A stretch of DNA of 51,577 nt from IMG/VR virus record IMGVR_UViG_3300046692_000385. One strand, given 5' to 3'. The translations under genes were made by a program, and so were the position numbers. Shown piece by piece: positions 27,956-34,723 of this stretch. Origin of the DNA: a virus (Duplodnaviria; Heunggongvirae; Uroviricota; Caudoviricetes). Positions within the stretch are counted from its first letter, which is position 1. Each line of letters starts with the position of its first letter. The notes below the pieces were generated by a model. That model did no database searches. It was not told where the DNA came from and saw only the letters and a program-made list of their open reading frames with translations.

Positions 27956-28609
27956 TTACGCGGAAACCACGTCTTTCGCGTGCGCGACAAAGGCGTCGGC
28001 ACCCGTCAACCCGGTCTGTTCTTCGATCAGCGCCATGAAGCGCGCGAGGTGCTTTTCATCCCGGCCCGCGACCGCCTTGAAGCCCAGGGCCTTCTCCAGC
28101 TTCACGTCGCGCGCATCGGTCGCCTCGAGCTTCTTGGCGGTCTCTGCAGCCTGTTCTCGCACCTCCTCGTCCAAGTCTTCAACGAACGGAGCGACGTTCA
28201 CGTCACTCAGGTCCGCCGTCATGAAGTCGAGCTCCTTGGCGTCGAAGATCCCTTCGAGGTCGAATTCGAGCGAGGCGAGTTCTTCCTGCAGGATGCGTGC
28301 GTCGATCTCCGAGAGCGCAACCCGGTTGTCGGCGAGACGCAGCGCCCGGGCTTCGTCTTTCGAGAGGTCATCGCGGACCACGACCGGAACGTGGGTCTGA
28401 CCCAGGGAGATGGCCGCCAGCCGCCGGCCGTGACCCGCGATGATCGTGCCGTCGGCTTCAACGACGATGGCGGTGTTCCAGCCGAACTGCTCGATCGACG
28501 CGGCGATCTTCTTGACCTGCGCGTCGTCGTGCGTCTTGGCGTTCAGCTCGTAGGGCTTGAGCCAGTCGACCGGCTTCAGGGTCGGTTTGAATTCGTTCAT
28601 CATTTCCAT
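27956..28609 (-). CDS. ParB/Srx N-terminal domain protein 1
   Basis: LKPYELNAKTH...IAASIEQFGW..IVV...IIAGHGRRLAA; no evident HTH or methylase fusion. Confidence 0.85.
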   Translation of the reverse strand: MEMMNEFKPTLKPVDWLKPYELNAKTHDDAQVKKIAASIEQFGWNTAIVVEADGTIIAGHGRRLAAISLGQTHVPVVVRDDLSKDEARALRLADNRVALSEIDARILQEELASLEFDLEGIFDAKELDFMTADLSDVNVAPFVEDLDEEVREQAAETAKKLEATDARDVKLEKALGFKAVAGRDEKHLARFMALIEEQTGLTGADAFVAHAKDVVSA

Positions 28610-28947: not shown

Positions 28948-29415
28948 TCAGACGGTCACCCAGTCGTCGGCCAGCATGTCGGTTTGCGACGCAAGCCAGG
29001 GCACGAACTTGTTGTCGGCCGTTTTCATACCGATCCACGGCAGCTCCGGATAGGCGTCGCCGTTGTCCATGACCTGCATAGTGCCCTCGGGCCTGAACAG
29101 GTCCAGGAACATCCCCTTGCCGTTCCAGCCCACGCGCGCGACCTGCAGACCGCTTTTGAGCGCTTCGATCGCCATGCCGAAGCTCAGCCCTACCGCTGCG
29201 CGATAGGAGCGATCGAAGACGTCCTTGGGGCTCCACGAGATGTAACCCACGTGGTTGACGTGGTTCGACGCACCGCCGTCCGCGTATTCGACGAGATACC
29301 CGGCTTCGAGTGGGTCTTCGTTTGCAGGGATCGTCCAGCCCCGATAGTCGTTGTAGGCGCCGCGCGTCATGGGTTCAGCGAACACCACCTTGGTGCCGAT
29401 GTAGCGTGTGGTCAT
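28948..29415 (-). CDS. Two-domain protein with C-terminal DUF2829/Tad2-like domain
   Basis: LSFGMAIEALKSG..VARVGWNGKGMF...PWLASQTDMLADDW. Confidence 0.8.
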   Translation of the reverse strand: MTTRYIGTKVVFAEPMTRGAYNDYRGWTIPANEDPLEAGYLVEYADGGASNHVNHVGYISWSPKDVFDRSYRAAVGLSFGMAIEALKSGLQVARVGWNGKGMFLDLFRPEGTMQVMDNGDAYPELPWIGMKTADNKFVPWLASQTDMLADDWVTV

Positions 29416-29417
29416 GG

Positions 29418-30065
29418 TTATTTCGTGAGAAGGTGAACAAGAGCGGCACCGGCATTGCTCAACGAGTCGTCCTCGGTGAAACGCTGGGCCTTCATGGTGG
29501 CTTCGATGAGTTCCGTGATGGTGCCGACGTCTTCCACGGGCACCTTGAAACGCATGATCTGGTGGGTCTGAACGACCGCTTCCTTGGGGAGTTGGGGCGG
29601 GGCCGCGTCGTCGTCAGGTATATCTAAATCATCCAACGCTATATTCACTGAAGAGAAGATCGAAGCGAAATCAGCGTCGGTGTAAGGCAGGAACTTCGCG
29701 AGGTCATCGGGGCTGCCCATGCCGTCGAGGAGCTCAGCGAGGCGCAGGGTGTCGTCGTTGCCGTAACGAGCGTTGTCGACCAGACCAATCTCTTTGGCCG
29801 TCTGATCATCGATACGCCCGACGTTGGTGACGGGCACCGAGTCGAGACCCATGCGGATCGCGGCGTCCCGTCGGTGTGCGCCGCCGAGGATCTCGTAGCT
29901 GCCGTCGGCAAGCTCACGCACGATGATCGGCTTGAACATGCCCAGACGCGAGATCGAAGCCTCGATCTTGGCCTCGTCATCGGGGGCGACGACGTTGGTG
30001 TTCCAGGGATTGGGCTTGAGCAGCTTCGGGGCAACTTCGAGAGATTGGATTTGGGGTTTGCCCAT
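29418..30065 (-). CDS. ParB/Srx N-terminal domain protein 2
   Basis: LKPNPWNTN...FKPIIVRE..YEILGGAHRRDAA. Confidence 0.85.
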   Translation of the reverse strand: MGKPQIQSLEVAPKLLKPNPWNTNVVAPDDEAKIEASISRLGMFKPIIVRELADGSYEILGGAHRRDAAIRMGLDSVPVTNVGRIDDQTAKEIGLVDNARYGNDDTLRLAELLDGMGSPDDLAKFLPYTDADFASIFSSVNIALDDLDIPDDDAAPPQLPKEAVVQTHQIMRFKVPVEDVGTITELIEATMKAQRFTEDDSLSNAGAALVHLLTK

Positions 30066-32862: not shown

Positions 32863-33172
32863 TTTTTGGTCTCCCTCGGTCAATTCGAGCGAGATTATAG
32901 ACAGCGCGCAAGCGCCGCGGCACGAGAACTATAAGGTTCCACCCACCACTCACCCATCTACCCAAGAACCCAGTGTGTTCTGTGCCATGTGGCGTGTGTT
33001 CGGGCGCGGATTGGACTGCGGGAGGTGCTGCGGGGATGCGGCTGTATAAGGAAGCGCGGACCTGGGCGGCCTGGCTCTATAAGGAAGCGTGTTTGGGGGT
33101 CTGAGGCGAGGAAGGGAGGGCCACCTGCACCGCTGAGATTTCCTAAGACTTCGGTCTCTGCGGTTCGCGCGG

Positions 33173-33343
33173 TTACTGCGTCGCGCGCTCTACACAAATT
33201 CGCGTTGCGTTGTCGCTCGCGCGTTGAATCTCGCGCAGACGTTTCGCGTAGTGTCGTTCTGTGCTTTCGATCAGATACGCGAGCGCACCGAATGCGAGAA
33301 CAGCAGAGATGATAGCGAAGAGTGAGAACGGTTCGAAGTGCAT
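33173..33343 (-). CDS. Small membrane protein (56 aa; not in track)
   Basis: MHFEPFSLFAIISAVLAFGALAYLIESTERHYAKRLREIQRASDNATRICVERATQ; own promoter. Confidence 0.65.
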   Translation of the reverse strand: MHFEPFSLFAIISAVLAFGALAYLIESTERHYAKRLREIQRASDNATRICVERATQ

Positions 33344-33375
33344 GCTTGTGTGTCCGTTTGAGTGAGTGTGTAGAG

Positions 33376-33419
33376 ATTCTAGCGTGCGTTACACAATACG
33401 TGCAATGTCTTTTTGCACG
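33376..33419 (-). promoter_or_regulatory. sigma70 promoter with CGTGCAA-N7-TTGCACG inverted repeat
   Basis: TTGCAC-18-TAGAAT; 24-bp element shared with 34475-34498. Confidence 0.72.
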
Positions 33420-33585
33420 AAAACATAGAACGACTTTTCGAACGTAAAACCTTGACCGTGAAACGTGCGAGTAACGATAACGAACATAGCGATTAAACCG
33501 GTTTAGAGACGTTTTGAGCGGTTCGCAGCACATGCAGCTACTCTGCGTTGTCTGACTGCTGCGAACCGGTTAGAGCGCTTCTGAG

Positions 33586-33601
33586 TGTTTCACGTGAAAC
33601 A
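33586..33601. promoter_or_regulatory. parS: Chromosomal-type parS site within a 26-bp perfect palindrome (33581-33606)
   Basis: TGTTTCACGTGAAACA, exact match to the widespread bacterial parS consensus. Confidence 0.82.
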
Positions 33602-33614
33602 CTCAGTTCTGACT
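33601..33614. promoter_or_regulatory. One-mismatch operator overlapping the parS palindrome arm
   Basis: ACTCAGTTCTGACT. Confidence 0.55.
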
Positions 33615-33623
33615 AACCGCTAA

Positions 33624-34373
33624 TTACGCGGTAAACATCGCTTGCACTTTTTTTGCTGCTGCTGCGTCAGTCAGTGTGATCGAGTCATCTTTGCGCGACT
33701 TAATGACGTTGCACACATTCAGAAAGCGCAACATTTGACGCGTGCTAGATGCTTGCGTGCTTGCGGTTGACGGTTCGCACATCTTGAACGAGCGGACCGC
33801 TTGAGTCTGCATATCTTCGCTAAACACGACTTTGTTAGAGAGCGACATTTGCGAACCGCGATTCGACAGCGACTCAAGCTTAATGAGATTTTTGAGAATC
33901 GCTTGCGTATAACCGTCGAAAACCGAAGTCATACCGCACGCAAGTGCAAAAATCGCTTTGCGGATTTTCTGTGCTGCGTAAATCGCAATGTAATCGTGCG
34001 CAGTCTTATCCGTGACAGCGTAGCAGCGCGACAGCGTAACAAAATCGACGTCGAGCGCTTGACACTTTTCGATAGCGAGCAACGCATTGCGACCGCTCAA
34101 TTGCGACAGTTCTGCGCGCATGTTCTTTGCGAAATTGTCGTTCGGTGCGTGCTTGATACGCGTTTCAATTGCTGCGAGCAAAAGCGCTTGCGCTGCTTCT
34201 GCTTTCTCTGCTGCGCTCACTTCTGCGACTTCTGCGACGACTTCAACCGCGAGCGCTTCAACCGCTTGCGCTTCGTCATTCGTGAGCGCTTGCACTTCTG
34301 CGACCGGTTGCGCTTTTTTGCTGCGTGCGCGCTTCGTTGCTTGTGCGTTCGTTGCGTTAGCTGCGTTCGTCAT
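33624..34373 (-). CDS. Hypothetical protein (249 aa) in GG-free island; possible DNA-binding protein
   Basis: Strong promoter; Ala/Glu-rich N-terminus; C-terminal STASTQASSTRQML motif. Confidence 0.8.
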   Translation of the reverse strand: MTNAANATNAQATKRARSKKAQPVAEVQALTNDEAQAVEALAVEVVAEVAEVSAAEKAEAAQALLLAAIETRIKHAPNDNFAKNMRAELSQLSGRNALLAIEKCQALDVDFVTLSRCYAVTDKTAHDYIAIYAAQKIRKAIFALACGMTSVFDGYTQAILKNLIKLESLSNRGSQMSLSNKVVFSEDMQTQAVRSFKMCEPSTASTQASSTRQMLRFLNVCNVIKSRKDDSITLTDAAAAKKVQAMFTA

Positions 34374-34403
34374 TTTCTTTCTCGCTAGTGTGTGTTGTGT
34401 GTG

Positions 34404-34498
34404 TAGTCAGATTTGACTATCTGTCGTCGCAGCAACGTTGCTGCGACTGAGATGAATTATGAAGCATCGAAACGATACGTGCAAACTCTTTTTGCACG
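34404..34498 (-). promoter_or_regulatory. Promoter, leader palindrome and operator of ORF 33624-34373
   Basis: TTGCAC(34484-34479)-17-CATAAT(34461-34456); 22-bp palindrome GTCGCAGCAACGTTGCTGCGAC 34426-34447; operator 34405-34418. Confidence 0.8.
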
Positions 34499-34613
34499 TT
34501 TTTCATGTGCGTGCATTTTCGCAACAAAAGCACGTTAGAGCACGTGCTCTATTGACGGGGCTTTTTGGTCTGCGTAGACGCGACGTCAATGCGGGTGATT
34601 CTCATTGGCGGAG

Positions 34614-34723
34614 GTGGATGAGGACGAATCTCGTTGGCTCGGGTGGATGAGGATGCTCCTTGTCCTTGGGAGTGGATGAGGACGATTCGCATTTAGGCCC
34701 GTGGATGAGGACGCTCCTCATCC
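34614..34723 (+). repeat. Four GTGGATGAGGAY repeats at exact 29-bp period
   Basis: Starts 34614, 34643, 34672, 34701; last copy closes hairpin GGATGAGGA-CGC-TCCTCATCC. Confidence 0.9.

Follow-up and report, generated by a model that had tools for sequence, protein, structure and literature searches.

Chromosomal Par systems share the 16-bp site TGTTTCACGTGAAACA, and chromosome 1 of B. cenocepacia carries the same 16-mer, known as parSc1 (PMC5450999). ParBc1 tolerates changes in this site only at positions 1/16, and a transition at positions 5/12; the core mutation A7T/T10A abolishes its binding (PMC5450999). An extra parSc1 on a plasmid delays the growth of B. cenocepacia (PMC5450999). Secondary replicons of the Burkholderiales use a Bsr-type parS, a palindrome of 16 bp that begins with a T-rich 5′ end and has a central CG within its 6-bp core (PMC5450999). 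On phages, host-type parS sites are documented, as far as we found, only for Bacillus phage phi29, which has five such sites; Spo0J binds them and helps to trap the genome in the forespore (as summarized in PMC2731898). A search of the literature for a natural host-type parS in temperate phages of Gram-negative bacteria found none, and returned mostly engineered parS used as a fluorescent label.

Here, we describe a host-type parS in a 51.6-kb stretch of viral DNA (the window, meaning the whole stretch that was analyzed), which belongs to an SSU5/nickie-like phage or phage-plasmid of Burkholderiales with a genome of ~115 kb. By its portal protein, it falls into a group of ~100–120-kb siphophages and phage-plasmids with SSU5, Pseudomonas phage nickie and Rhizobium phage RHEph10 among its members. 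Named homologues of the window proteins come from Paraburkholderia, Ralstonia and Undibacterium, and the host is therefore a member of the Burkholderiales, by kinship only. The window sequence was also found in public rhizosphere DNA runs; among the matching runs listed, there was no RNA run.

A chromosomal-type parS in a low-GC island

An earlier note on this DNA had placed a perfect copy of TGTTTCACGTGAAACA inside a 26-bp perfect palindrome. The sequence search confirmed the site, which matches the chromosomal-type parS at 16/16 positions, and the palindrome around it is indeed perfect (Table 1). The 16-mer is present as a single copy in the window, even when up to three mismatches are allowed. 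By arithmetic from the window composition (GC 0.616), ~3e-6 exact copies would be expected by chance, and shuffled sequence gave 0.19 matches at ≤3 mismatches.

The motif was compared with a Paraburkholderia assembly of ~8 Mb that carries a related prophage (L004, with a 55% identical gene 1). This assembly has exactly three sites within one mismatch of TGTTTCACGTGAAACA. Two of them are perfect copies, 1.5 kb apart and 2–4 kb from the best ParB match (193 bits, in a 301-aa frame), and the third is the prophage's own copy. The proposal that the 16-mer is a parS of the host-chromosome type is thus borne out by the same sequence occurring twice beside the chromosomal parB of a prophage-bearing Paraburkholderia, as well as on B. 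cenocepacia chromosome 1.

Two further elements pointed out in the note are also real. The 12-bp inverted repeat at 33519–33530 and 33557–33568 folds as a 12-bp stem, and the resulting hairpin sits in a ~200-bp spacer that is common only to the window and its closest relative, L001. The second CACGTG-centered palindrome, TAGAGCACGTGCTCTA, is present as described. It was rejected as a parS of the chromosome 1 type, since it differs at positions 2–5, where ParBc1 tolerates almost nothing (PMC5450999), and also as a Bsr-type site, because the CACGTG core is there but the 5′ end reads TAGAG and the palindrome is not kept in the relatives.

Table 1. Positions of the features in and around the parS locus (window coordinates; a dot marks features given without a strand).
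Feature	Position	Strand	Remarks
ParB N-domain-only protein, phrog_930	27956–28609	−	acidic C-terminal half
ParB N-domain-only protein, phrog_723	29418–30065	−	
Low-GC island (~49% vs 62%), few GG/CC	33145–34560	.	holds parS, genes 1 and 2, both promoters
Gene 2, 56-aa protein, one hydrophobic helix (predicted membrane protein)	33173–33343	−	
Promoter-like P2, TTGCAC-17-TAGAAT, within inverted repeat CGTGCAA-N7-TTGCACG	33376–33419	−	putative; read from consensus
Second hairpin, 12-bp stem and 26-nt loop	33519–33568	−	repeat search, fold
Perfect 26-bp palindrome enclosing parS	33581–33606	−	repeat search and RNA fold
Exact 16-bp chromosomal-type parS TGTTTCACGTGAAACA	33586–33601	.	identical to parSc1 (PMC5450999)
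Dispersed 14-bp operator copy ACTCAGTTCTGACT, one mismatch to AGTCAGNNCTGACT	33601–33614	.	one base common with parS
Gene 1, 249-aa protein P0001	33624–34373	−	phrog_4202/9272
Operator copy in gene-1 leader	34404–34419	.	motif search
22-bp perfect palindrome at predicted transcript 5′ end	34426–34447	−	co-varies among relatives
Promoter-like P1, TTTGCA-18-CATAAT, sigma-70-like; inverted repeat around −35	34456–34498	−	conserved in relatives
CACGTG-centered palindrome TAGAGCACGTGCTCTA	34536–34551	.	one of a set of ACGTGC boxes

The site lies in an island of 1.4 kb that is set off from the rest of the window by sharp edges on both sides, and in which GG/CC occurs ~5 times per 200 bp compared to ~25 expected, or about five-fold less often. 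Read along the minus strand, the order is promoter P1, the 22-bp palindrome, an operator, gene 1, another operator, the parS palindrome, the second hairpin, P2 and gene 2. The 26-bp palindrome starts 18 nt past the stop codon of gene 1, and parS 22 nt past the same stop. In most relatives, the start codon of gene 2 is found 23–25 nt past parS. An open reading frame at 32958–33533, which overlaps this region, reads as non-coding.

The gene 1 product, P0001, has a predicted helical domain followed by a C-terminal winged-helix-like domain with an invariant TASTQASSTR helix, as judged from the alignment and a model with a pLDDT of 78. A fold search with this model returned no solved structure at E ≤ 0.001. 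In the AlphaFold DB it matched only unnamed or uncharacterized proteins (best E 8.3e-8), and in the Atlas weak winged-helix look-alikes. Neither a DNA search with 32900–34700 nor a protein search with the gene-1 protein found a match in the phage collection; the gene-1 relatives used below were drawn from metagenome proteins.

Around the −35 element of both island promoters (33396–33419 and 34475–34498) there is an inverted repeat, ACGTGCAA-N7-TTGCACGT, that is kept across the clade (L001–L012). ACGTGC/GCACGT boxes are 4–20 times denser inside the island than outside it. The inverted repeats are probably the site of a second regulator, which is perhaps the island's own winged-helix-like protein. 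The 22-bp palindrome at the predicted 5′ end of the transcript is present at the same place in L001–L010 and shows compensated swaps (GTCGCAGC...GCTGCGAC in the window and CTCGCTGC...GCAGCGAG in L009); it is probably a stem-loop at the 5′ end of the mRNA.

Several other features were noted in and near the island. Gene-1 homologues are GG/CC-poor in most relatives, and not in some distant ones (L018–L020, with 70–80 GG/CC per 550 bp). MazE/PemK-type toxin-antitoxin pairs are found 3–4 kb upstream of the island in two relatives (L003 1–348 and L006 125–757), and may bear on the idea that a GG/CC-poor transcript avoids a sequence-specific RNase. At 34589–34713, the window has four direct repeats with a 29-bp spacing, each containing GTGGATGAGGACG, and similar TCCTCATCC or GAGGA-N-TCCTC units occur upstream of the island in relatives; these may represent iterons or an array of protein-binding sites. 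The non-coding, GG/CC-rich DNA that separates the island from the next gene (32883–32410) contains CGCTTCCTTATA(G/C)AGCC twice, at 33040–33100 on the minus strand.

Conservation of the site, the operator and the hairpin slot

The site was compared in nine distinct lineages, including the window, whose gene-1 proteins are 51–91% identical to each other. A parS occupies the slot after the gene-1 stop codon in eight of the nine. It is exact in five (the window, L005/L011, L009, L010 and L012), which together hold seven exact copies, because L005 and L012 have a second exact parS just before the small gene. Two lineages have a single change (A16G in L003/L008 and T5C in L004), and one has a decayed site that matches at 13/16 positions (L006), in which the hairpin is still kept. 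The site is thus conserved in relatives, although parS is absent from the closest relative, L001/L007, at 77%. A16G and T5C fall at the only positions where ParBc1 tolerates change (PMC5450999). Four-fold synonymous sites are only 32–66% identical between the same lineages, which is near saturation; with 16 bases unchanged in five lineages, the conservation of parS is therefore not neutral. The loss in L001/L007 and the decay in L006 show that the site is dispensable.

The note had also called for further copies of parS to be sought in the rest of the element. Three complete relatives (110–113 kb) have one or two copies, all in the island and none outside it. In ten named phages of the wider group, from Rhizobium, Pseudomonas, Xanthomonas, Stenotrophomonas, Salmonella, Klebsiella and Escherichia, no parS was found within one mismatch. 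The Rhizobium, Pseudomonas, Xanthomonas and Stenotrophomonas hosts are taken to have ParABS. A scan of IMG/VR for the exact 16-mer gave at least 119 contigs, which shows that a perfect parS is not rare in viral contigs; among the matches listed, none belonged to the phage family of the window. When parS flanked by operator half-sites was sought in the genome collection, 33 matches were found in unrelated bacteria, none of them with a gene-1 homologue; about as many would be expected by chance from the flanks of chromosomal parS sites.

The carriers of the site differ in lifestyle. The L008 provirus (15/16 parS) and L010 (16/16 parS) are of the integrase type, L004 (15/16) is embedded in a 450-kb contig, and L011 and L012, with two exact copies each, are of the ParA type and have no integrase. 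A division in which perfect sites go with ParA and imperfect sites with an integrase was considered and rejected, as L010 combines an integrase with a perfect site. Since parS is found in both integrase-type and ParA-type relatives, plasmid partition alone cannot be the reason for the site.

The right arm of the palindrome had been described as overlapping a one-mismatch operator, and this was confirmed, with one base pair shared between the operator and parS. The operator is of the type AGTCA-N4-TGACT. At ≤2 mismatches, the AGTCAGNNCTGACT motif has 23 copies in the window compared to 2.07 expected, nearly always in intergenic positions, and the copy at parS meets the motif with one mismatch and begins 9 nt past the gene-1 stop codon. 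The association is constant: each of the 10 parS copies, from eight lineages, shares one base with an operator. Copies that follow gene 1 have the operator upstream (left) of parS, and the second copies, ahead of the small gene, have it downstream (right). The closest relative without parS (L001) still has the operator. From this constant fusion in two mirror arrangements we argue that the occupancy of both sites is coupled, and the simplest physical expectation is that repressor and ParB would exclude each other. The suggestion that the operator-binding protein may gate the site fits with the operator abutting all of the copies.

A parS-like element also occurs at the other end of gene 1. In the gene-1 leader of L003, L004, L006, L009 and L010, the promoter operator is followed by an imperfect parS of 16–18 nt (TGTTTGACCGTGAAACA in L009, for example), in which the right half is perfect and the left half near-perfect, usually with one extra base between them. 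These five relatives thereby have an operator and parS-like module at both ends of gene 1; the leader of the window is without it.

The locus also shows signs of rearrangement. L005 (4832–5668) and L012 (3724–4419) have an extra gene between their two exact parS copies, with an operator outside each copy, an arrangement that resembles the insertion of a cassette at the palindrome. The contigs of four rhizosphere DNA runs were compared with the window, with partial cover and with the differences near the ends of pieces listed only in part. Two of the runs (X2 and X3) have a ~97% identical contig in which 384 other letters replace 33530–33580 (51 bp); its match to the window resumes precisely where the palindrome begins, at 33581. 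The differences listed nearby are at 33613 and 33617, and the C>G change at 33613 turns the operator into the perfect palindrome ACTCAGTTCTGAGT, built of two non-consensus half-sites. Together, the join in this variant strain and the gene between the parS copies in L005 and L012 suggest that the palindrome is also a boundary for cassette exchange.

The palindrome also fills a conserved slot for an intercistronic RNA hairpin, which the earlier note had missed. In the minus-strand transcript, the palindrome is predicted to form a stem of 11 bp closed by an ACGU loop (fold z −5.4). A terminator scan had no entry for it, and it was rejected as an intrinsic (rho-independent) terminator: the stem is present, but the tail that follows it in the window, AAGCGCUC, has no U-tract. 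In some relatives, the tails are U-rich. In distant gene-1 homologues (26–49% identity over the best aligned segment), the stop codon is immediately followed by a stem-loop of another sequence, which in some cases is a classical terminator. In the alignment of the ten parS copies, 82% of the cells in the stem are paired, compared to 33–42% with slid partners. Compensated changes occur at two of the outer pairs, one of which reads C-G/A-U/G-C and the other G-C/C-G. The six pairs that come from the 16-mer (positions 1–6 with 16–11) show no compensated change; their only deviations are two U-G wobbles and three cells without pairing.

A stem-loop in the same slot of homologous operons, with compensated changes, is what identifies a conserved intercistronic RNA hairpin. 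Co-variation of the outer arms, together with the unrelated hairpins in distant relatives, therefore points to the slot being an old intercistronic RNA hairpin whose stem became parS, with the inner stem frozen as a specific sequence on top of it. Template switching in palindromes can yield double changes without selection, and the co-variation was given little weight because it can be mimicked in this way. Since the hairpin is found in all relatives, part of the conservation may be structural.

Possible readers and function of the site

The window encodes two ParB-like proteins, both of which had been described as showing only the N-terminal domain. Profile and structure comparison agreed with this description, and the C-terminal halves are acidic. 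Both proteins match ParB over the N-terminal NTP-binding domain only. A model of one of them aligns to solved ParBs over ~140 residues, beyond which there are short, low-confidence acidic helices and a disordered stretch. Past residue 100, one protein has 8 K+R and 22 D+E and the other 13 and 29. A search of the rest of the element for a parB of its own, which the note had proposed, was carried out in the three complete relatives and gave no phage ParB carrying an HTH: there was no match to HTH_ParB (PF17762), and TIGR00180 matched over positions 8–107 of 186 only, corresponding to the N domain. The parS is therefore an orphan site. Between the two ParB N-domain genes lies a gene for a protein with a Tad2-like (Thoeris anti-defence 2) domain (28948–29415, minus strand), and the same leftward cluster, upstream of the terminase, encodes a thioredoxin, an ABC-type ATPase and a winged-helix protein.

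The phrog_723 protein is a conserved core gene product, 60–89% identical in lineages that have no parS, and is unlikely to be the reader of the site. Likewise, the TASTQASSTR helix of the gene-1 protein is unchanged where the palindrome in the slot is entirely different. From the N-domain-only ParB-like proteins, their retention without parS and the invariance of the gene-1 helix, we infer that host ParB is the only plausible specific reader.

On balance, we consider it somewhat probable that parS is a selected, repressor-gated loading site for host ParB that was laid into the hairpin slot. The palindrome would then have two jobs, as an intercistronic RNA hairpin and, in the Burkholderiales branch, as a host parS, in a slot that separates the two genes of an early operon, the second of which encodes the small membrane protein. 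On accessible DNA, the host's chromosomal ParB (of the ParBc1 type) would load as a CTP-dependent clamp. Because one base pair belongs to both the operator and parS, repressor and ParB would be unable to occupy the DNA together. In a lysogen, parS would be masked, avoiding competition with the chromosome's own centromere; the growth delay that an extra parSc1 causes in B. cenocepacia (PMC5450999) provides a reason for masking an exposed site. Without repressor, either right after injection or after induction, the site would be exposed, and it probably acts when the repressor is absent. The most likely pay-off would be that host ParB and ParA position or distribute the de-repressed phage genome before integration or before its own plasmid partition takes over, with a local effect on read-through into gene 2 as a second choice. 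The idea that the element borrows host ParB for segregation or positioning therefore survives in part: a conserved site of the host type and a phage without an HTH-bearing ParB argue for it, while plain plasmid segregation is insufficient to explain the site.

A more specific form of this proposal can be offered tentatively, and as rather less than probable: a repressor-gated, borrowed centromere through which host ParB, ParA and perhaps SMC would handle the genome from injection to establishment, or after induction, and which would be masked in the lysogen. If true, this would be a new viral way of controlling when a segregation signal of the host is active. It would also account for the finding that parS is retained in both integrating and plasmid-type relatives, and would spare the lysogen a centromere incompatibility with chromosome 1.

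The other explanations weigh less. That the palindrome is an RNA hairpin only, serving as an attenuator, 3′-end stabilizer or processing signal between genes 1 and 2, with incidental ParB binding and an accidental identity to parS that persists because stems evolve slowly, we regard as unlikely. The strong fold of the stem, the compensated outer pairs, the unrelated hairpins or classical terminators at the same spot in distant gene-1 homologues, the retention of the hairpin in L006 in spite of its decayed parS, and the co-variation of the operon's 5′ hairpin would all agree with such a role. However, even given a 16-bp palindrome, the chance of it spelling parS is 4^-8, or ~1.5e-5 (by arithmetic). 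In addition, compensated changes are never seen in the inner pairs, whereas they occur in the outer pairs as well as in the operon's 5′ hairpin; the uncompensated variants fall exactly at the positions where ParB tolerates them (PMC5450999); and the stem in the window lacks a U-tract. A chromosomal-type parS could instead act against the host, as a sink in which, once repressor is lost, hundreds of exposed copies during phage replication draw off ParB and upset segregation, SMC loading or division timing, to the advantage of the phage. The growth delay caused by plasmid-borne parSc1 (PMC5450999), an abutting operator that would hide the site in lysogens, and the presence of parS in integrating and plasmid-type relatives are compatible with this, but with one or two sites per genome the sink would stay weak for most of replication, L001 and L006 show that the site is easily lost, and a benefit to the phage from blocked segregation within a single lytic cycle is unsupported. 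We therefore consider a sink improbable.

Least credible of all, in our estimate, is a site for a phage protein, be it the island's winged-helix-like protein, a ParB N-domain protein or whatever factor reads the ACGTGC boxes. In favor of it, ACGTGC/GCACGT boxes with the same CACGT core are frequent in the island, gene 1 has the predicted winged-helix-like domain with its invariant helix, and the two ParB-like proteins are encoded only 4–6 kb away. Against this, the putative recognition helix of gene 1 stays the same where the slot palindrome is entirely different, and the ParB-like proteins have no HTH, are acidic beyond the N domain and are still 60–89% identical in lineages without parS. A phage reader would also leave the 16/16 identity with the host site unexplained.

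Relation to known systems

As in phi29, which in this way exploits the segregation machinery of its host, a host-type parS is found here on a phage without a ParB of its own. While phi29 is small and virulent and infects a Gram-positive spore-former, the window belongs to a temperate phage or phage-plasmid of ~115 kb that has one or two sites and a coupling to the lysogeny operator. Burkholderiales do not sporulate, and with one or two copies of the site, forespore trapping of the phi29 type does not apply. The phage also resembles the phage-plasmids, such as P1 with its parABS, N15 with its sop system and the SSU5 group (PMC7969092), in that these are large temperate phages for which life as a plasmid is possible and segregation is needed. 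P1, N15 and the SSU5-group phage-plasmids, however, encode their own ParA and ParB together with a centromere, whereas the parS described here matches the system of the host and is present in integrating relatives as well.

The 16-bp sequence is identical to parSc1 of B. cenocepacia chromosome 1, and the variants in the relatives, at position 16 and T5C, are of the kind that ParBc1 tolerates (PMC5450999). A single perfect site should suffice for ParB loading. Compared to a chromosomal parS, the phage site is an orphan with no cognate parAB, occurs in one or two copies rather than in an origin-proximal cluster, and lies inside a transcribed intercistronic hairpin, with one base pair in common with a repressor operator. 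ParB sites in control regions have been described before. In P. aeruginosa, ParB represses promoters next to parS3 and parS4 (PMC5521831), and, by analogy with KorB-OB of RK2 (PDB 8qa8/8qa9), a bound or sliding clamp could affect the neighboring genes. Unlike in these cases, the site described here is located between cistrons and not at a promoter.

The operator itself has parallels in the stoperators of Cluster A mycobacteriophages and the C1 operators of P1, in that a 14-bp site occurs ~20–30 times per genome, also inside transcribed DNA, here just past a stop codon. What sets the present locus apart is that one copy is fused to a site for a host factor. We know of no such fusion for stoperators or P1 C1 operators.

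The locus extends the known occurrence of host-type parS from phi29 to large temperate phages and phage-plasmids that form a widespread lineage in soil Burkholderiales, and provides a natural system for competition between a ParB loading site and a transcription factor. If host ParB does load at the site, this would be a simple, testable case of a virus that uses the chromosome-segregation machinery under its own regulatory control, with bearing on the positioning and inheritance of incoming or induced phage genomes and on the tolerance of an extra centromere in multi-replicon bacteria. Compared to the systems described above, two features are new: an RNA hairpin contains the parS within its stem, and the parS is physically joined to a lysogeny operator of the phage.
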